Shown here: positions 4,175-62,829 of the stretch, in pieces
How positions within the stretch are numbered: position 1 is the first letter of the stretch
Layout of the letters: every line of letters begins with the position of its first letter
DNA from: Candidatus Nealsonbacteria bacterium
GTDB taxonomy: Bacteria; Patescibacteriota; Minisyncoccia; Minisyncoccales; JAUWAW01
NCBI GenBank assembly: GCA_030601865.1
Contig: JAUWAW010000001.1
Location: 46,433-110,432, forward strand
Direction of reading: 5' to 3'
Length of the DNA stretch: 64,000 bases
The notes under the pieces: generated by a model
Seen by the model: the letters and a program-made list of their open reading frames with translations, nothing else
What the model was told of the DNA's origin: nothing
Database searches by the model: none
Program-made: the position numbers and the translations under genes

Positions 4175-5914
4175 ATGTCAAACAAAAAAATAGAAAAAAT
4201 TCGGCATTCGCTGGCGCATATTATGGCTGCAACGGTTAAGGAGCTTTATCCAAGAGTCAAATTCGGTATTGGCCCGGCCATTGAAAATGGTTTTTATTAT
4301 GATTTTGATTTAACCTCTCCTCTGTTCCCTGAAAATCTGCCAAAAATTGAAAAGAAAATACGGGAATTGATTAGAAAAGATTTAAAGTTTGAGAAAGAAA
4401 GTATTTCAAGAACAGAAGCCAAAAAAATATTTAAAAACCAACCATATAAATTCGAATTAATTAAAGAACTAAAAGGGCTACAAGTTTCATGTTTCAAGTT
4501 TCATGATTTCGTTGACTTGTGCAAGGGGCCTCATATTAAATCAACCAAAGAAATAAATCCCAAGGCGTTCAAATTAACTAAAATCGCCGGGGCTTACTGG
4601 CGGGGTGATGAGAAAAACCCCATGCTCACCCGCATTTATGGCGTGGCCTTTGAAACAGAAAAAGAATTAAAAGATTATTTAAAACAAGTTGAAGAAGCAG
4701 AACAAAGAGACCATCGTGTTTTGGGTGAAAAATTGGACTTATTTCATATTGATAAAGCCATCGGCCCAGGCCTTATCCTTTGGCATCCCAAAGGCGCACT
4801 CCTCAAAAAAATCATTGAGGATTATGTGCTTTCAGAATACCTAAAAGCCGGCTATCAACTGGTTAACACTCCCCATATTGCTAAAATTTCCATTTGGGAT
4901 ACCTCGGGCCACACCAAATTCTACAAAGACAGTATGTTCCCAGTCATGCAACTCAAGGAAATGGGCAAGGTAATCCCTTATCAGCTCAAACCAATGAATT
5001 GCCCTTTTCATATCTTGATTTATCAAAAAGAAATTAGAAGTTATCGCCAATTACCTATCCGATACACTGAATTAGGCACGGTTTATAGATACGAGAAATC
5101 AGGCACCTTGCACGGGCTGACGCGAGTGCGTGGTTTTACTCAAGATGATGCTCATATTTTCTGCACTCCTGAACAACTTGGTAAAGAGTTAGTGTCTGTT
5201 TTAAAACTAACTTTAAAAATATTTAAAACTTTTGGTTTTAAAGAATTTGAGATATGTCTTTCCACCCGGCCAAAAAAATATGTTGGCACTTTAAAAAGTT
5301 GGCAGAAAGCCACCAATGCTTTAAAATATGCCTTGGAAAAAGTAAAACTTGCCTATCAAATTGACCCTGGCGAGGGCGTTTTCTATGGACCCAAGATTGA
5401 CATTAAAATCAAAGATTCTTTGGGAAGGGCTTGGCAGTGTACCACCATCCAAGTTGATTTCAATTTACCTGAGGGATTTAATTTAAGCTATATTGATAAA
5501 AAAGGCAAAAAGAAACAGCCCATTATGATTCACCGAGCGCTTCTGGGTTCTTTGGAAAGATTTATTGGCGTTTTGATTGAGCATTATGCAGGCGCTTTCC
5601 CTTTGTGGCTGGCTCCAGAACAGACTTGGATTATTCCCGTAGGTACCCGTCACAAAAAATACGCCCGTGAAACATGCAAACAACTCTACGAGAACAGTTC
5701 TCGTAGTATTGTAAAAGACGCCAATGAAACCGTTTCCAAAAAAATAAGGGAAGGGGAAATCCAAAAAATTCCCTATCTCTTGGTTGTCGGCGACAAAGAA
5801 ATAAAAAGAAAATCAGTTAGGGTCCGCCAGCGAGGCAAGGGCGATATTGGAAAAATGAAACTGAATAAATTTATAGAAAAATGCCAGAATTGTCTTTGCA
5901 AACGCAAAAATTAA
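4175..5914 (+). CDS. thrS: Threonine--tRNA ligase (no N-terminal TGS domain)
   Basis: 579 aa; HSLAHIMA editing-domain motif, class II core (YRYEKSGTLHGLTRVRGFTQDDAHIF), C-terminal anticodon-binding domain. Confidence 0.93.
   Translation: MSNKKIEKIRHSLAHIMAATVKELYPRVKFGIGPAIENGFYYDFDLTSPLFPENLPKIEKKIRELIRKDLKFEKESISRTEAKKIFKNQPYKFELIKELKGLQVSCFKFHDFVDLCKGPHIKSTKEINPKAFKLTKIAGAYWRGDEKNPMLTRIYGVAFETEKELKDYLKQVEEAEQRDHRVLGEKLDLFHIDKAIGPGLILWHPKGALLKKIIEDYVLSEYLKAGYQLVNTPHIAKISIWDTSGHTKFYKDSMFPVMQLKEMGKVIPYQLKPMNCPFHILIYQKEIRSYRQLPIRYTELGTVYRYEKSGTLHGLTRVRGFTQDDAHIFCTPEQLGKELVSVLKLTLKIFKTFGFKEFEICLSTRPKKYVGTLKSWQKATNALKYALEKVKLAYQIDPGEGVFYGPKIDIKIKDSLGRAWQCTTIQVDFNLPEGFNLSYIDKKGKKKQPIMIHRALLGSLERFIGVLIEHYAGAFPLWLAPEQTWIIPVGTRHKKYARETCKQLYENSSRSIVKDANETVSKKIREGEIQKIPYLLVVGDKEIKRKSVRVRQRGKGDIGKMKLNKFIEKCQNCLCKRKN
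5687..5705. repeat. Family-4 palindrome TACGAGAACAGTTCTCGTA inside thrS
   Basis: Perfect 9+1+9 palindrome. The 25-nt string ctacgagaacagttctcgtagtatt is identical to the one in mnmA at 40876-40900. Confidence 0.85.
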
Positions 5915-7460: not shown

Positions 7461-9419
7461 ATGAAATATCATATTGTTACTTACGGCTGTCAAATGAATA
7501 AAAGCGACAGTGAGAGGATTGCTACACTATTAGAGAATAAAGGATATCAGCCCGCGAAAGATATTTCTCGGGCTGATTTGGTAGTAATTAATATGTGTTC
7601 TGTTCGCCAAAAACCGGTAGACAAAGCCAAAAACCAGATTGCTCGTCTCCGCAATAAAAAAATTATTTTAATAGGTTGTATTTTAGATGCTGACAAAAAA
7701 GAATTTGCAAAAATGGGAGTTAAAATCTGGAGAGGTCTGACCTCTGCAAAACTTGCAGAGGTCAGACCTCTAACTGGTTTTGTGCCCATTATGAGAGGGT
7801 GTAATAATTTTTGTTCATACTGTGTTGTGCCTTACACTCGAGGGCCGGAAAAATATCGCAGTCAAAAAGAAATTATTGGCGAAGTTAAACATCTTCTTAA
7901 AAAAGGAATTAAAGAAATTACTTTGCTGGGTCAAAATGTCGATAGTTATAAATATAAACCACCACGGGATCCTTCGGCTTCGCCTCAGGATGATAACTCC
8001 GTTGTCAATTTTGTAAAATTACTTCAGAAAATTACTGTCTTGCCCGGCGATTTTAAGATTAAATTTATTACCAATCATCCCAAAGATTTTTCTGATGAAC
8101 TAATCGATGAGATTGCTCGGAATGACAAAATAATCAAATATGTTCACTTGCCAGTGCAGTCAGGTGATAATAAAATCTTAAAAAAGATGAACCGCAATTA
8201 TACTGGTGAGCAGTATTTGGCTTTGATTAAAAAAATTAAAAAGAAAATACCTAATGTTGACCTAACAACTGATATTATTGTTGGCTTTCCCGGTGAAACC
8301 GAAAAACAATTCCAAAAGACAGTTAACTTGTTTAAAAAGATTAAATTTGCTACCGCCTACATTGCCAAATACAGCCCCCGCCCCGGCACCGTTGCCTATA
8401 AACTAAAAGACAACGTCCCCCTCGCAGAAAAAAAGCGCCGAGAACAAACCCTGAGAAAATTAATACCTCCTACCCGTCATTCTGAGGCGAAGCCGAAGAA
8501 TCTCAACCAACGAGATCCTTCGGCTCGCTATCACTCGCCTCAGGATGACAATAACAAACTTATTGTTATTTTGGGGCCGACGGCTGTAGGGAAAACAGAG
8601 TTTTCAATAAAGCTGGCCAAAAAATTTAACGGCCAGGTGATTTCGGCTGACTCCCGTCAGGTCTATAAAGGAATGAACATCGGAACAGGTAAAATAAGCA
8701 AAAAAGAAAGGCAAGGTATCCCCCACTATCTTTTAGATATTGCCTCCCCCAGAAGAAGGTTTTCGGTTGCCCAATATCAAAAAAAGGCGATTGAAGTCAT
8801 AAACAAAATTTTAAAAAAGAAAAAAATCCCGTTTTTAGTAGGCGGAAGTCCTTTTTATATTTACTCTATTGTTGAGGGTTGGGTTTTTCCCAAAATGAAA
8901 GCCGACTTAAAACTGAGAAAAGAATTGGAAAAAAAATCAATTGAAGAACTTTTCAACATATTAAAAAAACTCTCTCCGCAGAGAGCCAAAACAATTGAAA
9001 AGAAAAACAAAAGACGGCTTATCAGGGCAATTGAGATTGCCAAGGCTTTAGGCAAAGTTTTGCCTCTGAAAAAAAATCCCCAATTTGATTGTTTGTTAAT
9101 AGGGATTAAACTAACAAAAGAAAAATTACAAAAAAAAGTTTCCCAAAGAGTTGATAAAATGATTGAATTAGGTCTTGAAAAAGAAGTAAAAAAATTATCT
9201 GAAAAATACGGCTTCAATTCTGTGTTGGGAGAAAGTATTGGCTACCAAGAATGGGAAAAAAGCGGCAGCCGGGCTGCCGCTGAAATAGCAGAGGAAATAA
9301 AATTTAATACTTATCATCTTGCCAAGCGGCAAATGACCTGGTTCAAAAAAGATAAAAGAATCCTTTGGGTTGAGAATTATAAACAAGCGGAAAATTTGAT
9401 CAAAAATTTCTTGGTATAA
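7461..9419 (+). CDS. miaB-miaA: Fusion protein: MiaB-like methylthiotransferase (UPF0004 + radical SAM, no TRAM domain) fused to tRNA dimethylallyltransferase MiaA
   Basis: N-terminus MKYHIVTYGCQMNKSDSE and CNNFCSYCVVPYTRG (MiaB). From about residue 375, LIVILGPTAVGKTEFSIKLAKKFNGQVISADSRQVYKGMNIGTGK (MiaA P-loop). One uninterrupted 652-aa ORF. Confidence 0.85.
   Translation: MKYHIVTYGCQMNKSDSERIATLLENKGYQPAKDISRADLVVINMCSVRQKPVDKAKNQIARLRNKKIILIGCILDADKKEFAKMGVKIWRGLTSAKLAEVRPLTGFVPIMRGCNNFCSYCVVPYTRGPEKYRSQKEIIGEVKHLLKKGIKEITLLGQNVDSYKYKPPRDPSASPQDDNSVVNFVKLLQKITVLPGDFKIKFITNHPKDFSDELIDEIARNDKIIKYVHLPVQSGDNKILKKMNRNYTGEQYLALIKKIKKKIPNVDLTTDIIVGFPGETEKQFQKTVNLFKKIKFATAYIAKYSPRPGTVAYKLKDNVPLAEKKRREQTLRKLIPPTRHSEAKPKNLNQRDPSARYHSPQDDNNKLIVILGPTAVGKTEFSIKLAKKFNGQVISADSRQVYKGMNIGTGKISKKERQGIPHYLLDIASPRRRFSVAQYQKKAIEVINKILKKKKIPFLVGGSPFYIYSIVEGWVFPKMKADLKLRKELEKKSIEELFNILKKLSPQRAKTIEKKNKRRLIRAIEIAKALGKVLPLKKNPQFDCLLIGIKLTKEKLQKKVSQRVDKMIELGLEKEVKKLSEKYGFNSVLGESIGYQEWEKSGSRAAAEIAEEIKFNTYHLAKRQMTWFKKDKRILWVENYKQAENLIKNFLV
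7732..7770. repeat. Perfect 18-bp-arm palindrome in frame inside the miaB part
   Basis: gaggtctgacctctgcaa-aac-ttgcagaggtcagacctc; encodes RGLTSAKLAEVRPL. The antisense frame reads the near-identical RGLTSASFAEVRPL. Confidence 0.9.
7966..7994. repeat. Family-1 element copy in frame inside the miaB radical-SAM part
   Basis: gggatccttcggcttcgcctcaggatgat; encodes RDPSASPQDD. Confidence 0.85.
8476..8549. repeat. Inverted pair of family-1 elements forming the MiaB-MiaA linker
   Basis: gtcattctgaggcgaagccgaagaatctc ... gagatccttcggctcgctatcactcgcctcaggatgac; encodes RHSEAKPKNLNQRDPSARYHSPQDD. Confidence 0.85.
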
Positions 9420-9429
9420 CTTTATGTAA

Positions 9430-9451
9430 ATAACTCACGATCGTGAGTTAT
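9430..9451. terminator. 22-bp perfect palindrome between convergent miaB-miaA and gatB (bidirectional terminator candidate)
   Basis: ataactcacga|tcgtgagttat with CGATCG core. Confidence 0.5.
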
Positions 9452-9456
9452 AAACA

Positions 9457-10914
9457 TTAAAGAAGTTGCTTTAATATTTGATTAACCAGTCCCGGGCTGG
9501 CTTTTCCTTTTGTTTGAGCCATAACTTTGCCCACCAGGAATTGTAAGGCGTTTTCTTTTCCCTTTTTATAATCCTCAACTGGTTTTGGGTTTTTATTAAT
9601 AACTTCTTTTATTATTTTTTCAATTTTTTTCTCATCAGTCATTTGTTGCCAGCCCTTTTCTTCAATAATATGGGAAGGGTCTCCTCCAGTGCCAAACATC
9701 TCTTTGAGAACGGTCTTAGCGATTTTGCTTGAAATCTCACCTTTGTAAATCAAAATAATAAACTCAGCAAAATTCTCGGGAGTGATGAGAAAATCCTCGC
9801 CGACAATAGAGGCCCCCTTCAAAAGACCTTGTAGGTCAGTAACAATATAGTTGACAGCCAATTGGGTGAACTTTTTAGTTTGCTTAATCTTTTCAATCTT
9901 TGCCCAGTTGTCCAGTTCAGACATAACTTTCTCAAGATATTCGCCCAAATTTTTATTAAAAACAAAAATTTCAATTTCCTCATCTTTGAGCGCGTATTCT
10001 CTTTTGAAACGTTCTCTACGGGACTGAGGCAATTCAGGAATTTCTGCTTTAATTTCATTGATAAAATCTTCTTCAAGATGAAGCGGAGGAAGGTTAGGTT
10101 CTGGAGCATGCAGGTCTTCCGTGGAAAACATACCACCTCCTTTTTTTCTCTGAGAAAAAGTCATTCCTTTTTCATCGTCCCATCCTCTTGTTTCGGGAAG
10201 CACTTTTTTACCCTTTTTCAAGAGTTCTCTTTGTCTTTCAATCTCAAATTCTGTTGCTTTTTCTGCTGCCCGGAAAGAATTTAAATTTTTAATCTCTACC
10301 TTTGTTCCTAATTTTTTACTGCCTTTCAGCGCCATTGAGATATTTACCTCCACCCTCATCTGACCTTTTTCCATATTAGCTTCAGAGACATTTAAGTATC
10401 TTAAGAGTATTTGCAATTCTTGGGCGAATTTCCTTGCTTCTCTTGCTGAACTAATATCGGGCTCTGTCACTAATTCTATAAGGGGTATCCCAGCTCGATT
10501 AAAATTAACTAAAGAATAATCTTCTTTATGGATTAACGTCCCCACATCTTCTTCTAAATGGAGTTCATGGATTCGTATTTTCTTAGCATCAATTTTTAAA
10601 AAACCATTCTTGCCCAAAGGAGAAATATCTTTACTTATTTGGTATCCTTTAGGTAAATCTGGATAGAAATAAAGCTTGCGAAAGAATTCGGACTTTCTAA
10701 CAATCTCACAATTCAGAGCTAGAGCAGTTTTAACTATCTTTTTCACCGTTTCTTTATTGAGAACCGGAAGCACTCCTGGGTGACCCATACAAATCGGACA
10801 AATATTGACATTGGCATGACTTTCGTTAACGTTATTCAGGCAAGAACAAAACATTTTGCTCTTGGTATTAAGTTCTATATGTATTTCTAAGCCAATTGTT
10901 GGTTGATAGTTCAT
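9457..10914 (-). CDS. gatB: Asp/Glu-tRNA(Asn/Gln) amidotransferase subunit B
   Basis: 485 aa; MNYQPTIGLEIHIELNTKSKMFCSC start and a C-terminal GatB/YqeY domain. Confidence 0.93.
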   Translation of the reverse strand: MNYQPTIGLEIHIELNTKSKMFCSCLNNVNESHANVNICPICMGHPGVLPVLNKETVKKIVKTALALNCEIVRKSEFFRKLYFYPDLPKGYQISKDISPLGKNGFLKIDAKKIRIHELHLEEDVGTLIHKEDYSLVNFNRAGIPLIELVTEPDISSAREARKFAQELQILLRYLNVSEANMEKGQMRVEVNISMALKGSKKLGTKVEIKNLNSFRAAEKATEFEIERQRELLKKGKKVLPETRGWDDEKGMTFSQRKKGGGMFSTEDLHAPEPNLPPLHLEEDFINEIKAEIPELPQSRRERFKREYALKDEEIEIFVFNKNLGEYLEKVMSELDNWAKIEKIKQTKKFTQLAVNYIVTDLQGLLKGASIVGEDFLITPENFAEFIILIYKGEISSKIAKTVLKEMFGTGGDPSHIIEEKGWQQMTDEKKIEKIIKEVINKNPKPVEDYKKGKENALQFLVGKVMAQTKGKASPGLVNQILKQLL

Positions 10915-15948: not shown

Positions 15949-15954
15949 AATGAA

Positions 15955-16090
15955 ATAACCAATAACCAAGATACAATAACCAAACAAATCTCAATAACCA
16001 ATAATCAATAACCAATTATATAATGTTTGGTTATTGGTGTTTGAAGATTGGTTATTGTTTGGTTATTGTTTCTTGTATCTTGGTGATTGA
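15955..16090. repeat. ~130-bp long-hairpin repeat (AATAACCAA arm / TTGGTTATT arm), copy 1
   Basis: About 90 percent identical by eye to 56757-56883 and in the same orientation; lies between the nusG stop and the rplK start. Confidence 0.85.
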
Positions 16091-16639: not shown

Positions 16640-16652
16640 ATTTGAGCTCTAA

Positions 16653-16710
16653 TTCAAGATTATATATTTATACATTAGCGAATCAAGGTTCTAGCGGAGC
16701 GTTAGCGAGG
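16653..16710 (-). promoter_or_regulatory. Repeated promoter-like cassette, copy upstream of nusG
   Basis: Minus strand AGAACC..AGAACC-TTGATT(16686-16681)-N16-TATAAT(16664-16659)-CTTGAATT, 13 nt before the nusG ATG. Confidence 0.6.
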
Positions 16711-16717
16711 CAGGTTC

Positions 16718-16918
16718 TTATAATACAAACTTGTTCAGTAAAGTGCTAAATAAAAAGTCCACGCTCCCCAAAAAAATGGCCACAGCAATTGAGGCGCCAA
16801 TAACAATCAAAGTGTATCTCAAAGTCTCCTGACGAGTAGGCCAGTTAACTTTTTTAATCTCTAGTCGCACTTCTTTCAAAAAAGTGACAATTTTTTTAGG
16901 AAAGGCGCTAATAGCCAT
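16718..16918 (-). CDS. secE: Preprotein translocase subunit SecE
   Basis: 66 aa; EVRLEIKKVNWPTRQET followed by a single TM helix; canonical position upstream of nusG. Confidence 0.88.
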   Translation of the reverse strand: MAISAFPKKIVTFLKEVRLEIKKVNWPTRQETLRYTLIVIGASIAVAIFLGSVDFLFSTLLNKFVL

Positions 16919-16923
16919 GTTCT

Positions 16924-16992
16924 TAATTCAAGATTATATATTTATATATTAGCGAATCAAGGTTCTGACGAGCGTTAGCGAGGCAGGTTCTT
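16924..16992 (-). promoter_or_regulatory. Repeated promoter-like cassette, copy upstream of secE
   Basis: TTGATT(16960-16955)-N16-TATAAT(16938-16933)-CTTGAATT; near-identical to 16653-16710 and related to 62704-62829. Confidence 0.6.
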
Positions 16993-40488: not shown

Positions 40489-41640
40489 TTAACATATAAT
40501 TATTCCGCCGCCTAAAAGTTTTTCTCCTTTATAGAAAACCACTGATTGACCCGGGGTGACGGCGCGTTGGGGCTTGGCAAAAATTACTTTACAGCGCCTG
40601 CCCGCTATTTTTTTTATTGCTTCAACTTCAATTACTGGCGAACGATACCTTATTTTCGCTTTTATCCCAACTATTGGAGTTGAACTCCAATAGTTTGAAA
40701 TCCAGTTAACATCTTTGACAATCAATTCTTTTTTTTCCAAATGTTTTTCGTTCTTGGTGACAATTAAAGCATTATTTTTGACATCCTTGTCTAAAACATA
40801 GTATGGACCTCCGGCAAGCCCTATCCCCTTTCGCTGACCAATAGTATAAAACCACAACCCCTGATGCTCGCCAATACTACGAGAACAGTTCTCGTAGTAT
40901 TCTAAGATGGGGCCAGGATTTGTTTTAAGATGTTTTCTCAAAAATTCCTCTGTTGTTTTTTTAATAAAGCAAACTTCTTGAGATTCTCTGGCTTCAAGTA
41001 CCGGCAAGTCAAACTCCTTGGCCATCTGTCTTACTTGTCTTTTGGTGTAATCCCCAATGGGAAACAAAATGTGTTTTAATTGTTTCTGGCCCAACTGCCA
41101 TAAAAAATATGATTGATCTTTTTCTTTATCTTTTGCTCTTACCAATGTGTAATTTTGTATTTTTGTGTCAGAATTCTGCGACCTGCCCGTAATGCTTCGC
41201 ATAGCGATACAGGCGGGTCGCAGGATTTTGACACAGTTTAGATCTTTATTTGTATTTTCACATTTACGCGCATAGTGGCCAGTGGCAATAAAATCTGCGT
41301 CCAAGCCCAAGGCTTTTTTCAATAAAAGTCCAAATTTTATTTCTTTGTTGCAGACCACACAAGGGTTGGGGGTTCTGCCTCTTTTATATTCTTTCAAAAA
41401 ATAATTAATGATTTTTCTCTTAAACTCTTTTCTTAAATCCAAAACCAAAAATGGAATGCCTAATTTTTTAGCAATTTTTCTGACTCTTCTCTCACTTTCT
41501 CTGAAATGAGACGACTCATAAAGTTTCATAAAAACTCCTGTTACATTAAAATTAGCCCTTTTAAGAAGGGCTGCTGCTACCGAACTATCCACGCCACCGG
41601 ACATCGCCACTATTACCTTATTTTTTCTTTTTGCTTTCAT
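40489..41640 (-). CDS. mnmA: tRNA-specific 2-thiouridylase MnmA
   Basis: 383 aa; VAMSGGVDSSVAA, NPCVVCN, ATGHYAR, KDQSYFLW, CFI; carries two palindromic elements in frame. Confidence 0.92.
   Translation of the reverse strand: MKAKRKNKVIVAMSGGVDSSVAAALLKRANFNVTGVFMKLYESSHFRESERRVRKIAKKLGIPFLVLDLRKEFKRKIINYFLKEYKRGRTPNPCVVCNKEIKFGLLLKKALGLDADFIATGHYARKCENTNKDLNCVKILRPACIAMRSITGRSQNSDTKIQNYTLVRAKDKEKDQSYFLWQLGQKQLKHILFPIGDYTKRQVRQMAKEFDLPVLEARESQEVCFIKKTTEEFLRKHLKTNPGPILEYYENCSRSIGEHQGLWFYTIGQRKGIGLAGGPYYVLDKDVKNNALIVTKNEKHLEKKELIVKDVNWISNYWSSTPIVGIKAKIRYRSPVIEVEAIKKIAGRRCKVIFAKPQRAVTPGQSVVFYKGEKLLGGGIIIC
40874..40900. repeat. Family-4 palindrome inside mnmA
   Basis: atactacgagaac-a-gttctcgtagtat; encodes YYENCSRSI (thrS copy encodes YENSSRSI). 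Confidence 0.85.
41164..41235. repeat. Family-2 element (TGTGTCAAAATCCTGCGA/TCGCAGGATTTTGACACA), expanded copy in frame inside mnmA
   Basis: tgtgtcagaattctgcgac-[34-nt insert]-gtcgcaggattttgacaca; 72 bp = 24 codons (CVKILRPACIAMRSITGRSQNSDT). Confidence 0.85.
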
Positions 41641-47028: not shown

Positions 47029-48833
47029 TAACTTCTAAGGAGTTTCAGGTATATTTCCTCGGGAATAGGGGTGCGGCCGTGTTTTTGGAGAATTTTTTTG
47101 CCTTTGCGTTGTTTGACTAAGAGTTTCTTTTTGCGGGTAAAGTCGCCGCCGTACAGGGGCGCGGTCACATCCTTGCGCAGGGCGCGGATATCCTCACGCG
47201 CGATTATTTTGCCGCCAATTTGGGCTTGAAGCGATTGGGTAAAGTTTTTTGGAGGCAGGACATCCTTTAATCTTTTGAGAAACTGACGCGCCTGCTTGCG
47301 CGCCGCGTCTTTATAAACAATGCGCGAGAAACAGGGCTTCAGTTCGCGCGAAACCAAAAACTCAAGTTTAATAAGGTCGCTTTTTTTATACTCGTCAAAT
47401 TCGTAACTAAAGGAAGCGAACCCCTTGCTAATGCTTTTCAGTTTGTCTAAAAAATCCTCAATAATCTCAGCAAGCGGCGCATAAAACTCTAAAAGCAAGG
47501 TATCTTTATCTAAAACTTGCGAGGAAATAAACTTGCCTCGTTTCTGCTCAACTAATTCATGGATTTTGCTGTTGTGTCTGGTCGGGCTGACAATGTTTAA
47601 TTTAACCCAGGACTCCGCTATATAGTCAATCTCGCCCTGGTCCGGCAGTTCTGCGGCCGAATGGACTAAAATCGGCTCTTTTTGCTTTTTTGTCTTTACC
47701 TTGAAAACAACCGAAGGAGAAGTAAGAACCACTTGGGTGCCATACTCCCGCTTTAACCTTTCCATGGTGATTTCCAGATGAAGCATACCTAAAAAGCCGA
47801 TGCGCAGTCCCCTGCCTAAATAAGGATTGCTCATAGGTTTGGCTGTGAGAGAAGTGTCGTTGAGCCGCAGTTTGTCAAAATTGGCTTTCAGGGTTTCAAA
47901 GTTTTGGCCTTGCCCTTGCCCCTGCCCCGGAAAAACATTGGCAAAAACCAATGGCTTGGGCTCTTTATAGCCAGGCAGGCGAGGACAGTCCTCGCCTGAT
48001 TTGGTTGTTATTGTCTCGCCGATTCTGACGTCTGAAACGTTTTTTATGCCCGTGGCGATGTAGCCGATTTGGCCGGCTATTAGTTTTGGCACAGGACTAC
48101 GTTGCGGTATGAAAATGCCGACTTCTCTTGTTTCGGCGCGGACTTTTTGATTGACAAAATAAATTTGGTCGCCTTTTTTGATTTCGTTGCCAAACAGCCG
48201 CACATAGGCAATTACTCCCTGAAAATTGTCGTAAATTGAATCAAAAACCAGGGCTTTTAATACTCCTCCGCCCTCTGTTTTTGGCTGCGGCGCCTGCTTT
48301 ATCAACGCTTCAAGAACTTTCTCTATATTCTCGCCTGTTTTGGCGGAAATAGTTAAAATTTCCCCTGAATCAATACCTAAAAGATTGGCTAATTCCTGCT
48401 TAACTTTTTCTAATTGCTCCTCGCTCGGACAAACATCTATTTTATTGATAACCGGTATTATTTTCAAACTCTGCGCCTGCGCCAGGCGCAGATTAGCCAG
48501 GGTCTGTGCCTGAATGCCTGAAACCACGTCAACCAATAAAATAACACATTCAACAGCGGCCAAAGACCGTTCTACTTCATAGGAAAAATCCATATGGCCA
48601 GGCGTGTCAATCAAGTTTAATTGGTACTTGCGGCCGGCCAGACCATACTCCATTGCACAGGGCTGCATCTTGATAGTGATGCCGCGCTCTCTTTCCAAAT
48701 CCATCTGGTCCAAAACCTGTTCGCGCATCTGCTCTTTCTTCAAGGTGTTGGTAATTTCCAAAAACCGGTCAGCCAGAGTTGATTTGCCGTGGTTTATATG
48801 CGCGATTATAGAGAAATTTCGTATATTTCCCAT
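47028..48833 (-). CDS. lepA: Elongation factor 4
   Basis: 601 aa; IRNFSIIAHINHGKSTLADR G1 motif, DTPGH, NKID, LepA C-terminal domain; visibly more GC-rich than its neighbours. Confidence 0.95.
   Translation of the reverse strand: MGNIRNFSIIAHINHGKSTLADRFLEITNTLKKEQMREQVLDQMDLERERGITIKMQPCAMEYGLAGRKYQLNLIDTPGHMDFSYEVERSLAAVECVILLVDVVSGIQAQTLANLRLAQAQSLKIIPVINKIDVCPSEEQLEKVKQELANLLGIDSGEILTISAKTGENIEKVLEALIKQAPQPKTEGGGVLKALVFDSIYDNFQGVIAYVRLFGNEIKKGDQIYFVNQKVRAETREVGIFIPQRSPVPKLIAGQIGYIATGIKNVSDVRIGETITTKSGEDCPRLPGYKEPKPLVFANVFPGQGQGQGQNFETLKANFDKLRLNDTSLTAKPMSNPYLGRGLRIGFLGMLHLEITMERLKREYGTQVVLTSPSVVFKVKTKKQKEPILVHSAAELPDQGEIDYIAESWVKLNIVSPTRHNSKIHELVEQKRGKFISSQVLDKDTLLLEFYAPLAEIIEDFLDKLKSISKGFASFSYEFDEYKKSDLIKLEFLVSRELKPCFSRIVYKDAARKQARQFLKRLKDVLPPKNFTQSLQAQIGGKIIAREDIRALRKDVTAPLYGGDFTRKKKLLVKQRKGKKILQKHGRTPIPEEIYLKLLRS
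47906..47930. repeat. Hexanucleotide-type repeat encoding (GQ)4 inside lepA
   Basis: ggccttgcccttgcccctgccccgg; encodes PGQGQGQGQ. Confidence 0.8.
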
Positions 48834-50434
48834 TAATATTCTTCTTCAAAGATTTGGGCGGTGAAAGTGTAGAGGTCAATATCTTCTTCTTTCCAGCAGT
48901 CCCAGGGCAGACCGACTTTTTGAAAGCAAAGTTCTCCCATAAATTTTTCTAAATCCCAATTATTGTCAGTAGCTACTTGGGGCAGAAAAACACCATTTCT
49001 CAAGCCCTTTCTAATTTGCACGCCGTGTTTGCCAATCTCAATTCCCTGCCAATTATCAATTTTCTCTAAGGGACTCAAAACCGAAATTTCATAGTCAAGC
49101 TCACCAAGTTCATCCTCTCCCACAGGATAAAATCTTTTATCCTGGGTGGCAGCCGCAATGGCCATTTGAGAAACAACTTGATACAGAGGTATGTCAGTGG
49201 GTGAAAAACGGCCAATGCAGCCCCGTAGCTGGCTCTGCTTCTTTAAAGTAACAAAAGCACCCAAGTTTTGATTTAATATGGATTCTTCAACTTGAAATTC
49301 TGGAATTTTACCTTCTTTGACAAAAGTTTCAACTGAATTCTTAGCGATTTCCAAAAGTTTTTCTTGCTCTGTTTTCTTTAATAAATGACTCTGTCTTGGT
49401 CCAAAAAAGCCAATGGCTGCATAGCCAACCACTTGCGATTTATCACCTATGGGCACGTCTCCGGAATTGGCATATTTTAATAATTTAATTTCTTCAGCAG
49501 CCAATTCTTTGGCTACTAACATGATTGTTTTGATAGCATCTTCTGCGCAAACAAAAGTTACTGCTCCAGGAATATTCTCTTTTTCCAAGTCCTGAATTGT
49601 TTTTTCTAACTCCCCTACCCTACCGGTTAAAATGGCTTCAATGGTTTTGCTATCTGCCTGTTGAGCATCACCATAGCTAGGATAATGCGACAAATCAGAA
49701 CTGGCAATCAGTAAAATATTCTTACCTCTGATATTTTTAACAATGGCTTGAGCTAAAATTTTGTAATCTTCTTCTGGGCTGTTGCCCAAAATAATGGGTA
49801 CAATCCGTGGTACGTGCACGGACAAAGGAGATCCTTCGGCCTTCGGCCTCAGGATGACTTGCAAAAAAGGTAATTCCACCTCAAGGGAATGCTCTCTTTG
49901 ATGAACACTCTCTCTGAAAAAAATTCTTTCGTTTTCTGCAATAATTTTTTCAGCTAATTGAGAATCTATTTCTACTTCTCCTAAGGGAGTTTTATAAAAA
50001 CCTCGTGGGAAAATAGAAATACCTTCAAATCTCTCATAATGGCTGTTGCCAATAAGAATCACCGTAGCAAATTGGTTCAAATCGTGACGATCGTCATAAC
50101 TTGAACCACCCATCAGTTGCTTAAAGCCGTAGGCGGCCACGGGGCCAGAAAATGGATAGCCAGCATGGGGCAGAACTAAAGCAAAAATCTCGCCTTCGGT
50201 TTCTGGCGGACTTGCCTTTTCCAAAAATTGGTCAATCATTTTCTCTAACTCCTCAGGGTCTCCAGGATAAAATTGTCCAGCCACTGCCGGCTGCCGAATT
50301 ATTTTTTCTTCTTTTTCAAAAACGTCTGAAACCATAGCTTTTTGAGAAATATCTTCCCCTCCCTTAAATATTAAAAGTATACTAATCGCACCAACAACAA
50401 AAATTAATAAAGCTATTATTAGAACTTTCTTCAT
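48833..50434 (-). CDS. AmmeMemoRadiSam system fusion: protein B (Memo-like) + protein A (AMMECR1), with N-terminal membrane anchor
   Basis: 533 aa. TM helix at residues ~3-23. Memo motifs PAVAGQFYPG, LPHAGYPFSGPVAA, SSDLSHYP. AMMECR1 motifs GAFVTLKK..LRGCIGRF, DKRFYPV, ISVLSP, GVFLPQVA. Confidence 0.85.
   Translation of the reverse strand: MKKVLIIALLIFVVGAISILLIFKGGEDISQKAMVSDVFEKEEKIIRQPAVAGQFYPGDPEELEKMIDQFLEKASPPETEGEIFALVLPHAGYPFSGPVAAYGFKQLMGGSSYDDRHDLNQFATVILIGNSHYERFEGISIFPRGFYKTPLGEVEIDSQLAEKIIAENERIFFRESVHQREHSLEVELPFLQVILRPKAEGSPLSVHVPRIVPIILGNSPEEDYKILAQAIVKNIRGKNILLIASSDLSHYPSYGDAQQADSKTIEAILTGRVGELEKTIQDLEKENIPGAVTFVCAEDAIKTIMLVAKELAAEEIKLLKYANSGDVPIGDKSQVVGYAAIGFFGPRQSHLLKKTEQEKLLEIAKNSVETFVKEGKIPEFQVEESILNQNLGAFVTLKKQSQLRGCIGRFSPTDIPLYQVVSQMAIAAATQDKRFYPVGEDELGELDYEISVLSPLEKIDNWQGIEIGKHGVQIRKGLRNGVFLPQVATDNNWDLEKFMGELCFQKVGLPWDCWKEEDIDLYTFTAQIFEEEY
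49828..49858. repeat. Family-1 element copy in frame inside the Memo domain
   Basis: gagatccttcggccttcggcctcaggatgac; encodes (minus strand) VILRPKAEGSP. Confidence 0.85.
50074..50107. repeat. Family-3 element (TTCAAATCGTnnCGATCGTCATAA..TGAA) in frame inside the Memo domain
   Basis: ggttcaaatcgtgacgatcgtcataacttgaacc; encodes SSYDDRHDLNQ. Confidence 0.8.
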
Positions 50435-51595: not shown

Positions 51596-51609
51596 AAAAC
51601 CCTTTTATT

Positions 51610-51645
51610 TGTGTCAAAATCCTGCGATCGCAGGATTTTGACACA
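51610..51645. repeat. Family-2 element, perfect 36-bp palindrome, intergenic
   Basis: tgtgtcaaaatcctgcga|tcgcaggattttgacaca; contains GCGATCGC; identical to 56120-56155. Confidence 0.95.
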
Positions 51646-51651
51646 GTTTTA

Positions 51652-54749: not shown

Positions 54750-56117
54750 TTGATGAACGGAAATTCCTCAAATGAATTGCCAGACAAGATGCCCCCGCAG
54801 AGCGTGGAGGCGGAGCAATGCCTTTTGGGCTGTTTAATGCTGGACAAAAACGCTGTTATCAAGGTGGCTGATTTTTTAGAGCCACGGGATTTTTATAAAA
54901 GAACGCATCAGCAAATCTATCAAGCTGCTATTGACCTCTTTGAAAAAAGAGAGCCGATTGATGTCTTAAGTTTATCCACTCGCTTAAAAGAAAAAGGAGG
55001 ATTAGATGAAATTGGCGGTAATACTTATTTAACCCAGTTGGTTAATTCTGTGCCTACGGCCAGCAATATTTTAAATTATGCTAAAATTGTGCAGCGCAAA
55101 AGAATTTTGCGTGACCTCATTTCTGCTTCTCAGGAAATAGGCGGGATGGGCTATAAAGAAGCGGATGACGTGGATGAGCTTCTTGACCAGGCGGAAAGAA
55201 GAATTTTCAGTATTGCTCAAAAAAGCTTAAGTCAAAGATTTGTGCTAGTCAAAGATACTTTAGAAGAAGCTTTTGAGAGATTTGATACGCTTTCCAAAGA
55301 AGGAGCCAAGCTGCGAGGCATTCCCACCGGCTTTTCTGACCTTGATAATATTTTAGCCGGCTTGCAAAAATCAGACCTCATAATTTTGGCCTCACGCCCC
55401 AGTTTGGGTAAATCAAGCATGGCCGTGGACATTGCCCGGTATGTGGCCGTGCATGAAAAAATCCCGGTGGGTATATTTAGTTTGGAAATGTCCAACGACC
55501 AGATTGTGGATAGGTTAATTGCAGCTCAAGCCAATGTTGACCTTTGGAGATTGAGAACGGGTCGGCTTTCAAGTGAGGGAGAAAATAATGATTTTGTCAG
55601 AATTCGCAAAGCACTTGATGTTCTTTCCTTAGCCCCTATTTTTATTGACGATGCAGCCACTTCTAATATTTTGCAAATGAGGGCCATGGCCAGAAGATTG
55701 CAGGCAGACCAGGGCTTAGGTTTAATCATTGTTGATTATTTGCAGCTTATGGAACCGAGAAATCCCAATGTCAACATGGTGCAGCAAGTAACTGAAATCT
55801 CTAAGTCCTTGAAAGGGCTGGCCCGAGAACTCCAGATACCGGTTTTAGCCCTCTCGCAATTATCACGTGCTGTTGAACAAAGAACACCCCAGATTCCAAG
55901 ATTATCCGACCTTCGTGAAAGCGGCTCGCTGGAGCAGGATAGCGACGTGGTTTTGTTTATACATCGTGAGGATCGCTACAAGCCCGACACGCCTAGGAAA
56001 AATATCGCTGATATACTTATTGCCAAACACAGGAATGGACCCATCGGCAAAATAGAATTATATTTTGATGAACAAAGGGTCACTTTCCGCAACCTGGAGA
56101 AAAAACAACAAGAGTAA
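54750..56117 (+). CDS. dnaB: Replicative DNA helicase DnaB
   Basis: 455 aa; PPQSVEAEQCLLGCLM N-terminal domain, Walker A SRPSLGKSS, IIVDYLQLM, SQLSR. No intein. Likely start is the ATG at 54753. Confidence 0.95.
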   Translation: MMNGNSSNELPDKMPPQSVEAEQCLLGCLMLDKNAVIKVADFLEPRDFYKRTHQQIYQAAIDLFEKREPIDVLSLSTRLKEKGGLDEIGGNTYLTQLVNSVPTASNILNYAKIVQRKRILRDLISASQEIGGMGYKEADDVDELLDQAERRIFSIAQKSLSQRFVLVKDTLEEAFERFDTLSKEGAKLRGIPTGFSDLDNILAGLQKSDLIILASRPSLGKSSMAVDIARYVAVHEKIPVGIFSLEMSNDQIVDRLIAAQANVDLWRLRTGRLSSEGENNDFVRIRKALDVLSLAPIFIDDAATSNILQMRAMARRLQADQGLGLIIVDYLQLMEPRNPNVNMVQQVTEISKSLKGLARELQIPVLALSQLSRAVEQRTPQIPRLSDLRESGSLEQDSDVVLFIHREDRYKPDTPRKNIADILIAKHRNGPIGKIELYFDEQRVTFRNLEKKQQE

Positions 56118-56119
56118 AC

Positions 56120-56155
56120 TGTGTCAAAATCCTGCGATCGCAGGATTTTGACACA
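56120..56155. repeat. Family-2 element, perfect 36-bp palindrome between dnaB and recR
   Basis: Identical to 51610-51645. Confidence 0.95.
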
Positions 56156-56160
56156 AAATT

Positions 56161-56754
56161 ATGTATCCAAATTCTATTCAAAAACTTATAGATTTGTTCT
56201 CCAAATTTCCCACGGTGGGTCCTCGGACGGCCTCGCGTTTTGTTTTTTATTTAATGTATCTTCCCAAAGAAAAAATTGAAGAACTCGTTCAAGCCATCTC
56301 TAATTTTAAAAACAAGATTAAACTTTGTCAGCTTTGTTTCAATCCCTTGGAAGGCGAAGGAGGCCTTTGCAAAATTTGTTCTGACCCTACCAGAGACAAA
56401 ACCTTGCTCTGTATTGTTGAAAAAGAAACTGATTTGCAAGCCATAGAAAAAATTAAAAAATATAAGGGTCTTTATTTTATTTTGGGAGGCACGGTTTCTA
56501 ATCTGAAACCAGAAGCCCTAAAAAAACTACGGCTCAAAGAATTAGAAGAACGGGTTAAAAGTCCTGAAATCCAGGAAGTTATCCTGGCAACCAATTCTAC
56601 TACCGAGGGTCAAGCCACGGCTTTATATTTACAAAGATTATTAAAACCCTTCAATAAAAAAATCGTCCAACTCGGACGAGGATTACCTATGGGCGGCGAA
56701 TTAGAGTATGCTGATGAAGAAACACTCTCTTCGGCTCTGGAGAGCAGAAGGTAA
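56161..56754 (+). CDS. recR: Recombination protein RecR
   Basis: 197 aa; HhH start, Cys4 zinc finger CQLCFNP...CKICSD, Toprim domain. Confidence 0.93.
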   Translation: MYPNSIQKLIDLFSKFPTVGPRTASRFVFYLMYLPKEKIEELVQAISNFKNKIKLCQLCFNPLEGEGGLCKICSDPTRDKTLLCIVEKETDLQAIEKIKKYKGLYFILGGTVSNLKPEALKKLRLKELEERVKSPEIQEVILATNSTTEGQATALYLQRLLKPFNKKIVQLGRGLPMGGELEYADEETLSSALESRR

Positions 56755-56756
56755 AA

Positions 56757-56883
56757 CACCAATAACCAAGAAACAATAACCAAACAAATTTCAATAACCA
56801 ATAACCAATTTCCAAACTGTTTGGTTATTGATGTTTGAAGATTGGTTATTGTTTGGTGATTGTATCTTGTATCTTGGTTATTT
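56757..56883. repeat. ~130-bp long-hairpin repeat, copy 2
   Basis: Between convergent recR and rplU; overlaps the last codons of rplU; same orientation as copy 1. Confidence 0.85.
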
Positions 56884-57172
56884 CTACTTCTGTAAAGGGC
56901 TGTCTATGCCCTGTTTTTTTCTTATACCGTGTTTTAGGTTTGTACTTAAAAACAATTACTTTTTTGCCTTTGCCCTGTTTCAAAACTTTGCCCATAACTT
57001 TGGCTCCTTTAACCAAAGGAGTGCCAATCTCCACTTTTTTATTCTTCTCCACTAATAAAACCTGGTCAAAGATTACTTCTTTGCCCTCTTTCTCCTCTAT
57101 TTTCTCTATTTTGATTTTATCCCCGGGAGCAACAAGATATTGTTTGCCTCCGGTTTTAATGACAGCTAACAT
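56846..57172 (-). CDS. rplU: 50S ribosomal protein L21
   Basis: 108 aa; MLAVIKTGGKQYLVAPGD...GHRQPFTEVEI; no rpmA follows. Confidence 0.92.
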   Translation of the reverse strand: MLAVIKTGGKQYLVAPGDKIKIEKIEEKEGKEVIFDQVLLVEKNKKVEIGTPLVKGAKVMGKVLKQGKGKKVIVFKYKPKTRYKKKTGHRQPFTEVEITKIQDTITKQ

Positions 57173-62664: not shown

Positions 62665-62703
62665 CAAAAAAAACAAACTGTAACAAAATCAAATTTCTTT
62701 TAT

Positions 62704-62829
62704 TTCAAGAATATATGTTTATACATTAGCGAATCAAGGTTCTTGAGCGAAGCGAGAGGTTCTTAATTCAAGAATATGTGATTATTCCTTAGCGAATCAA
62801 GGTTCTCGAGCGAAGCGAGAGGTTCTTAA
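62704..62829 (-). promoter_or_regulatory. Two tandem 63-bp copies of the promoter-like cassette
   Basis: 62704-62766 and 62767-62829. Each reads on the minus strand AGAACC-N14-AGAACC-TTGATT-N16-TATATT/CATATT-CTTGAA. Copy B supplies the last 9 codons of the murF-like ORF. Confidence 0.6.

Follow-up and report, generated by a model that had tools for sequence, protein, structure and literature searches.

How did a single gene come to encode two consecutive tRNA-modifying enzymes, and did short repeat elements at their junction take part in this? The question is raised by miaBA, a miaB-miaA fusion gene in a 64-kb stretch of a Candidatus Nealsonbacteria genome (contig JAUWAW010000001.1, GC 38.6%), which as a whole is called the window here. 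In tRNAs that read UNN codons, MiaA attaches a dimethylallyl group to A37 at N6, giving i6A, and MiaB then inserts a methylthio group at C2 of i6A37 with a radical S-adenosylmethionine (radical-SAM) cluster and an auxiliary cluster, giving ms2i6A. The original prediction for this locus had MiaB deprived of its TRAM domain and joined to MiaA by a linker that a pair of repeat elements encodes, and made these elements the cause or the stabilizer of the fusion. The architecture was found as predicted; as judged from the relatives of the protein, the elements are later insertions.

Two enzyme halves in one reading frame

A single open reading frame (ORF) with an ATG start extends over positions 7461..9419 of the plus strand and encodes 652 amino acids followed by the stop codon. 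A protein 100% identical to the predicted product (P0001) is present on a 119,850-bp NCBI contig. Pfam and NCBIfam scans identified the UPF0004 domain, the radical-SAM domain and the complete MiaA expected for the fusion. A collection of 5.8 billion proteins was searched, the best 120 matches were evaluated, and the window protein was aligned with 119 relatives (120 fused sequences).

The UPF0004 domain, the N-terminal domain of methylthiotransferases (MTTases), covers residues 2-85 (7464..7715, plus strand; Pfam PF00919, E 3e-22). All three cysteines of the auxiliary [4Fe-4S] cluster, C10, C46 and C73, are present in the MiaB half; C46 and C73 are invariant in the 120 sequences and C10 is kept in every full-length sequence. 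The radical-SAM core was assigned to residues 108-338 (7782..8474, plus strand), as the Pfam match PF04055 spans residues 108-290 (E 3e-33), the NCBIfam MiaB models reach residue ~338 and the MiaB structure 7MJV of the PDB aligns with residues 103-329 (phmmer E 3e-69). Its CxxxCxxC motif is formed by C114, C118 and C121 (nt 7800-7823), all of them invariant. Within the MTTase subfamilies of NCBIfam, MiaB scored highest (350.9 bits), followed by MtaB (263.7) and RimO (219.2).

The second half is a complete tRNA dimethylallyltransferase, residues 365-652 (8553..9416, plus strand). The match to the MiaA equivalog TIGR00174 covers positions 1-285 of 288 and scores 256.1 bits, far above the cut-off of 148.65. 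Pfam IPPT (PF01715) is matched over its full model, positions 1-243 of 243, by residues 400-631 (E 2e-64), and the match to the P-loop region starts at residue 366. By sequence, the PDB relatives of this half are 2QGN, 3D3Q and 2ZM5. The P-loop GPTAVGKT is formed by residues 372-379 and the DSRQ motif by residues 397-400; G372, K378, D397, S398 and Q400 are invariant in the 120 sequences and the remaining residues of the MiaA motifs are at least 90% conserved. The region of the helical insertion ('swinging') domain, by which MiaA enzymes clamp the anticodon stem-loop, is included in the full-length model match, and residues 483-530 are predicted helical with a high predicted local distance difference test score (pLDDT). 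Thus, the catalytic motifs of both halves are all intact.

The TRAM domain is missing from the fusion protein: no match to PF01938 was obtained with Pfam even at E<=1, and the match to the MiaB equivalog TIGR01574 covers its model only up to position 369 of 437, the expected start of TRAM. MiaA follows in its place, as predicted. When all six frames of the window were searched with a hidden Markov model (HMM) derived from TRAM-bearing relatives, no stand-alone TRAM was detected (best E 0.53), nor does any frame encode another miaA or miaB. To see whether the linker hides a TRAM-like fold, the window protein was modelled with AlphaFold2 (AF2) on the 120-sequence alignment. The model has a mean pLDDT of 87 and confident domains. 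The sole long segment with a pLDDT below 50, residues 340-362, matches the element-encoded linker, and no β-barrel or TRAM-like fold was predicted there.

Since both catalytic halves are intact and strongly conserved, a bifunctional tRNA-A37 enzyme, i.e., an ms2i6A synthase, is the best reading of the gene, and we consider this assignment probable with good confidence. From the subfamily similarity and the obligatory pairing with miaA we infer that the MiaB half converts i6A37 to ms2i6A37. Two points weigh against the assignment. The MiaB half remains slightly below the TIGR01574 cut-off (350.9 against 355.3 bits), which we attribute to the missing TRAM, and for the fusion family in general both activities are deduced from domains and motifs.

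Compared with the characterized MiaB proteins (Bacteroides uniformis, PDB 7MJV-7MJZ; YmcB of B. subtilis), the fusion shares the UPF0004 domain with its three cluster cysteines and the radical-SAM core with the CxxxCxxC motif, and MiaB is its best-scoring MTTase subfamily. In difference to them, it has no C-terminal TRAM, so that the chain runs straight into MiaA, it scores just under the equivalog cut-off and it carries a repeat-element insertion in a radical-SAM loop. MiaA proteins of known structure (the E. coli MiaA-tRNA complex 2ZM5/3FOZ; 2QGN; 3D3Q) are matched over the full length with conserved P-loop and DSRQ motif. However, the MiaA of the fusion lacks a separate N-terminus and follows MiaB in the same covalent chain. 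In the window and its relatives miaB always precedes miaA in gene or domain order, which is the reverse of the reaction order, as MiaA acts first.

Fused and split relatives and the loss of TRAM

All of the best 120 matches are MiaB-MiaA fusions with a length of 578-730 aa. They derive from many independent assemblies (NCBI, JGI, ENA, Logan), and those with a name belong to Patescibacteria or Candidatus Nealsonbacteria. The fusion is therefore common in Patescibacteria and already present in public databases, where it is listed under plain MiaA or MiaB names; such an annotation hides one of the two activities. No paper on a MiaB-MiaA fusion was found in a literature search of limited reach. 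The Patescibacteria fusions of the databases share the architecture and the thrS…miaBA…gatB synteny and are 44-69% identical to the window protein (BLASTP), whereas the window protein differs from them by a 23-residue element-encoded insertion in the linker, which it has in common only with P0003, and by an 18-residue insertion in the radical-SAM loop, which also holds an element.

TRAM is missing in 114 of the 120 fused sequences. The other six (P0033, P0040, P0088, P0104, P0112 and P0116) keep a TRAM of 65-70 residues between the radical-SAM core and MiaA. TRAM-bearing fusions are also found in Candidatus Nealsonbacteria (XOB40994.1), including a complete Nealsonbacteria genome (L004). The closest relatives, P0002 and P0004-P0009, are fused and TRAM-less and 61-69% identical to the window protein (BLASTP). 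The closest one, P0002, is 76% identical over aligned columns and its locus is organized as in the window, with thrS, a gene for a 523-aa membrane protein, miaBA and the convergent gatB.

Split pairs were identified in a locus scan of the GTDB species representatives. Among the matches listed, adjacent miaB and miaA genes with TRAM are present at L008 (ATGA stop/start overlap), L009, L010, L011 and L035, and split pairs without TRAM at L006 (ATGA overlap), L007 (8-nt overlap), L012 (20-nt gap) and L005 (330-nt gap). When the MiaB of L007 was used as query, about 116 of the best 120 matches were stand-alone TRAM-less MiaB proteins of 325-400 aa. In the four of these proteins that were examined, on five contigs, miaA directly follows in every case (overlap of 11-28 nt or a 57-nt gap), in the same thrS…miaB-miaA…gatB synteny as in the window. 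As the split forms occur in the same synteny, the conserved unit appears to be the tightly coupled miaB→miaA pair, which is frequently fused.

The TRAM status of loci from other phyla was judged from ORF length, TRAM-HMM matches and Pfam. Their MiaB ORFs are 420-580 aa long among the loci listed and mostly TRAM-positive. Likewise among the loci listed, miaA is found in the flank of 9/9 Patescibacteria loci and of 3/71 loci from other phyla. In a neighbour-joining tree the TRAM-bearing fusions and the split forms are scattered among TRAM-less fused clades, and four of the five split pairs with TRAM fall into the basal clade, as does the TRAM-less L012. This distribution suggests that TRAM was lost repeatedly, probably more than once at the least, and that fusion or fission was repeated as well.

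What could make TRAM dispensable? Domain swaps in B. subtilis showed that TRAM does not discriminate i6A from t6A, and it may be a non-specific, interchangeable RNA clamp (PMC2952846). Because TRAM was lost mainly in the one lineage with tightly coupled miaB and miaA, we favour the reading that MiaA, either covalently linked or in a complex, provides the tRNA docking and a local hand-off of the i6A-tRNA; it is plausible, and we put it forward tentatively. The C-terminal MiaA half would prenylate N6 of A37, the N-terminal half, a two-cluster radical-SAM methylthiotransferase, would convert i6A to ms2i6A, and the coupling to MiaA would compensate for the missing TRAM clamp and hand the i6A-tRNA to MiaB. 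In its widest form, for which we claim somewhat less, MiaB and MiaA of Patescibacteria would be one obligatory two-step A37 machine, in which the tRNA-clamping surface of MiaA replaces TRAM, so that TRAM could be discarded repeatedly, and the junction would be loose enough to house a widespread 25-nt hairpin element in-frame.

The alternative that the fusion gives only co-expression and genome streamlining is somewhat less likely in our view, and it has to be weighed, as several observations count for it and against docking by MiaA. L019 and L022, outside Patescibacteria, encode TRAM-less MiaB-like proteins with no miaA in the available flanks, and therefore TRAM can be lost without coupling to MiaA. 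In L032 and L047 (Omnitrophica) miaA is near the gene of a TRAM-less MiaB but not adjacent to it, in L032 with an ORF for a TPR/SPOR protein in between, and in L005 the two genes are set apart by the 330-nt gap. The TRAM-less MiaB-like proteins outside Patescibacteria consist of UPF0004 and Radical_SAM only (about 380-410 aa). The genomes of the Candidate Phyla Radiation (CPR) are highly compact, and substrate discrimination resides outside TRAM (PMC2952846). The inter-domain confidence of the AF2 model is only moderate: the predicted template-modelling score (pTM) is 0.58 for the window protein and 0.71 for the short-linker relative P0069, and neither value determines how the two domains are oriented to each other. 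Furthermore, MiaA cannot simply hold the anticodon loop while MiaB acts, because each enzyme flips A37 into its own site, which makes a picture of this kind sterically doubtful. It also has to be considered that the locus scan mostly listed ordinary MiaBs of other phyla and is no census, and that the tree carries no support values and is indicative only.

Against mere co-expression stands the heavy concentration of TRAM loss in the miaA-coupled lineage, as seen in the flank counts, and most MiaBs from outside the CPR among the loci listed keep TRAM. In addition, with linkers of about 3-8 residues the two domains must lie closely against each other. The AF2 model of P0069 shows no disordered segment, and the last radical-SAM helix (301-314) is followed by strand β1 of MiaA (318-323) within three residues. 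Such a model agrees with a compact two-lobed enzyme, although it is no proof of one. If the coupling is functional, the family would offer a simple natural system for tRNA hand-off between two enzymes that flip the same nucleotide, and would bear on what TRAM contributes to methylthiotransferases. It would be a natural case in which the coupling of two consecutive tRNA-modifying enzymes made an RNA-binding domain superfluous. The fused as well as the split forms, both of which occur with TRAM and without it, could serve as natural controls.

Linker elements and the origin of the fusion

The linker between the two halves, residues 339-364 (8475..8552, plus strand), is predicted to be disordered and was delimited by AF2 pLDDT and alignment to P0002. 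Residues 339-363 (nt 8476-8549), 'PPTRHSEAKPKNLNQRDPSARYHSPQDD', lie between the last radical-SAM helix and strand β1 of MiaA and, as the pattern search and the folding confirmed, are encoded by an inverted pair of elements. The left one, GTCATTCTGAGGCGAAGCCGAAGAATC (8476..8502, plus strand), encodes (R)HSEAKPKN(L) and contains GCGAAGC in its core. The right one (8514..8549, minus strand) is inverted, has a longer core and encodes DPSARYHSPQDD on the plus strand. Both were detected in repeat and pattern searches. The ends of the pair are the inverted repeats GTCATYCTGAGG and CCTCAGRATGAC, and folding of the pair gives a 74-nt hairpin with a free energy (dG) of -25 kcal/mol (z = -7.7). Relative to P0002, whose junction '…LINKGRTFAKLIVILG…' is element-free, the insertion amounts to exactly 23 codons.

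In the alignment, the segment corresponding to window residues 330-368 is 39 residues long in the window protein and 37 in P0003, whereas most relatives have 11-17. The true linker of most TRAM-less relatives has about 3-8 residues and is free of elements. P0003, encoded at locus L001 of the Logan assembly of run SRR31656001, is the sole relative with an element pair at the linker position. A comparison of the window with L001 showed that the element ends of the two pairs match while their cores differ. As P0003 is 81% identical to P0002 and 72% identical to the window protein, the pair was either ancestral to all three and then lost in P0002, or it was inserted twice at one spot. Other lineages carry different short inserts in the linker, e.g., 'PPTPRASAG' or 'KADPPRAE'. 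The junction therefore is an insertion-tolerant spot, and this explains the presence of elements there without any role in the fusion.

A third element of the same family, GATCCTTCGGCTTCGCCTCAGGATGA (7968..7993, plus strand), was found by repeat search in a surface loop of the radical-SAM domain. It sits in a net insertion of 18 codons (54 nt, about 7950-8006) with the peptide KYKPPRDPSASPQDDNSVV, which is missing from P0002-P0008. The loop insertion (residues about 164-182) was predicted with low AF2 confidence, with block-mean pLDDT values of 68 (161-170) and 56 (171-180).

The proposal that an insertion of the element pair, or a recombination between elements, created or stabilized the fusion and displaced TRAM could build on the linker being almost wholly encoded by the pair, on three of the five element copies of the window being located in miaBA and on the pair of P0003 at the identical site. 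It did not hold when the relatives were surveyed: 118 of the 120 fused proteins, window protein included, have no element in the linker, among them P0002 in spite of its close similarity to the element-bearing P0003. The closest relatives and more than 100 remoter ones are fused, TRAM-less and element-free, so that fusion and TRAM loss predate the elements. Split TRAM-less pairs and TRAM-bearing fusions both exist, and both occur without elements; fusion and TRAM loss are thus independent of them. The strict element pattern is also absent from all other miaB/miaA loci compared, and we regard an origin of the fusion by elements as highly improbable. An equally slight chance is left to the single ORF being an assembly or sequencing artefact that hides separate miaB and miaA genes. 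Related genomes often have the two genes as a split, overlapping pair, and a palindromic junction can trouble assemblers, but the eight closest relatives, P0002-P0009, come from independent samples and are all fused, and P0003, from a different sample, carries at this site an in-frame pair that differs in length. The insertion measures a whole number of codons relative to P0002, the pair is stop-free in only three of the six frames, and neither the sequence nor the relatives gave an indication of a hidden stop at the junction.

The element-encoded linker could also have a function, either as a selected flexible tether or as a hairpin of mRNA or DNA that pauses translation or transcription between the halves. 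The hairpin is very stable and the pair was kept in-frame in two diverged lineages. However, P0002 and more than 100 other relatives do without it, the two orthologous pairs vary freely in their cores, the linker peptide is predicted to be disordered and the same element family is inserted in unrelated genes, which makes such a function improbable.

By sequence comparison, the elements thus appear as later in-frame insertions into insertion-tolerant surface segments, namely the linker and the radical-SAM loop. In the Patescibacteria family miaB lies directly upstream of miaA, either as a separate gene that overlaps or adjoins it and is probably translationally coupled to it, or fused with it in one ORF. 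The most likely origin of the fusion is a lost stop codon at a miaB/miaA junction with overlap, and this inference fits the fused junctions '…NKKPKLIVILG', which resemble the N-terminus of split MiaA, 'MNKKLIVILG'. TRAM was lost in most of the family, probably several times, and the elements, which encode peptide predicted to be disordered, were inserted secondarily. Three in-frame hairpin elements in one gene of an essential pathway illustrate how much peptide 'junk' is tolerated by a conserved enzyme in a streamlined genome.

The loop element at 7968-7993 had not been mentioned in the original prediction, nor had a perfect 19+3+19 palindrome, WRGLTSAKLAEVRPL (7731..7771, plus strand), which the repeat search located in frame between UPF0004 and the radical-SAM core. 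This 41-nt palindrome is unrelated to the element family and unique in the window (dG -22.9 kcal/mol, z = -9.8). The right arm corresponds to native coding sequence of L002 and L001 (an identity of 16 of 24 nt with L002 in a count by eye). The left arm repeats the right one exactly in inverted form and stands in place of native sequence, which lengthens the gene by a net three codons. It looks like a template-switch mutation of the quasipalindrome type and not like a mobile element. The P0003 gene has a different GC-rich hairpin, CCGAAGTCCCGACTGAAGTCGGGACGAAGG, at about 2040-2080 of L001, which is inserted in-frame ('CAPKSRLKSGRRRALP') behind the UPF0004 helix. Neither the window nor P0002 has this hairpin, and in-frame hairpin insertions therefore recur in the miaBA gene family.

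The element family and other repeats of the window

The elements share the conserved ends GTCATYCTGAG … GAAGRATC, which enclose a variable GC-rich hairpin core. A strict family pattern gave three matches in the window versus none expected (100 shuffles). In total, the window contains five copies, all of them in-frame within genes. Besides the three in miaBA, the repeat search yielded a long version with a nested hairpin in the RNase HII gene (139-200; minus-strand ORF starting at 302). It has the structure GTCATCCTGAGCGAAGC-[CCGCCCAACTTTC TTCG GAAAGTTGGGCGG]-GCGAAGCGAAGGATC and is located in-frame in the N-terminal region, encoding '…GSFASPAQLSKKVGRASLRMT…'. The fifth copy (49830-49858) lies in-frame ('VILRPKAEGSP') in the gene of a 533-aa Memo+AMMECR1 fusion protein (minus-strand ORF 48833-50434). 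Single elements are free of stop codons in four of the six frames.

To learn how far the family extends, metagenomes were scanned. At least 160 copies in at least 120 contigs (loci L090-L209) were obtained, with 42-65% GC (10th-90th percentile). Among the metagenome matches listed, the 25-mer GTCATCCTGAGCGAAGCGAAGGATC is the commonest form of the element, and the inverted arrangement with GTCAT pointing outward, as in the linker, is frequent. An ORF of at least 150 aa spans 61 of the 160 copies listed, compared to 145 of 160 per-copy controls at random positions. The element family is thus widespread, not specific for CPR bacteria and normally intergenic, and the placement of all copies of the window inside genes is therefore unusual.

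The elements may be REP-like (repetitive extragenic palindromic), MITE-like (miniature inverted-repeat transposable element) or functional hairpins. When the elements and palindromes were searched in Rfam with gathering thresholds, only two tRNAs and no element were matched, and a permissive search gave chance matches to miRNA-like hairpins only, far below their cut-offs. The linker pair resembles MITEs in its terminal inverted repeats. However, no convincing transposon-style target-site duplication was recognized when the filled sites were compared with the empty sites of L002.

Rickettsia palindromic elements (RPEs) are short palindromic repeats of about 100-150 nt that are inserted in-frame in protein-coding genes. 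By analogy only, they are the nearest known counterpart of the window elements, which are likewise short, multi-copy and palindromic, lie in-frame in conserved genes and are absent from the orthologues, occupy surface or linker segments and are open in most reading frames. In contrast to RPEs, the window elements measure only 25-62 nt and have an unrelated sequence, and their family is spread over many phyla, mostly intergenic elsewhere, with no evidence of transposition found.

Downstream of miaBA, the inverted-repeat listing contains a terminator-like 20+20 palindrome (inverted repeat I3, 9421..9460) between miaBA and the convergent gatB (ORF 9457-10914, minus strand). Other intergenic palindromes were noted at 51608-51649 and 56116-56157, at 5686-5711 and 40872-40897, and at 50074, 58280 and 58949. 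Several of the intergenic palindromes are centred on CGATCG, and one identical 42-nt palindrome occurs twice. They are probably terminator-like or REP-like and distinct from the intragenic element family.

The repeat search also revealed larger AT-rich repeats. A unit of ~64 nt, rich in 'AATAACCAA', forms inverted pairs at two loci 40 kb apart (15952-16089 and 56753-56884), and a 63-nt direct repeat is arranged in tandem at 62700-62825, with copies near 16.6-17.0 kb (16649-16985).

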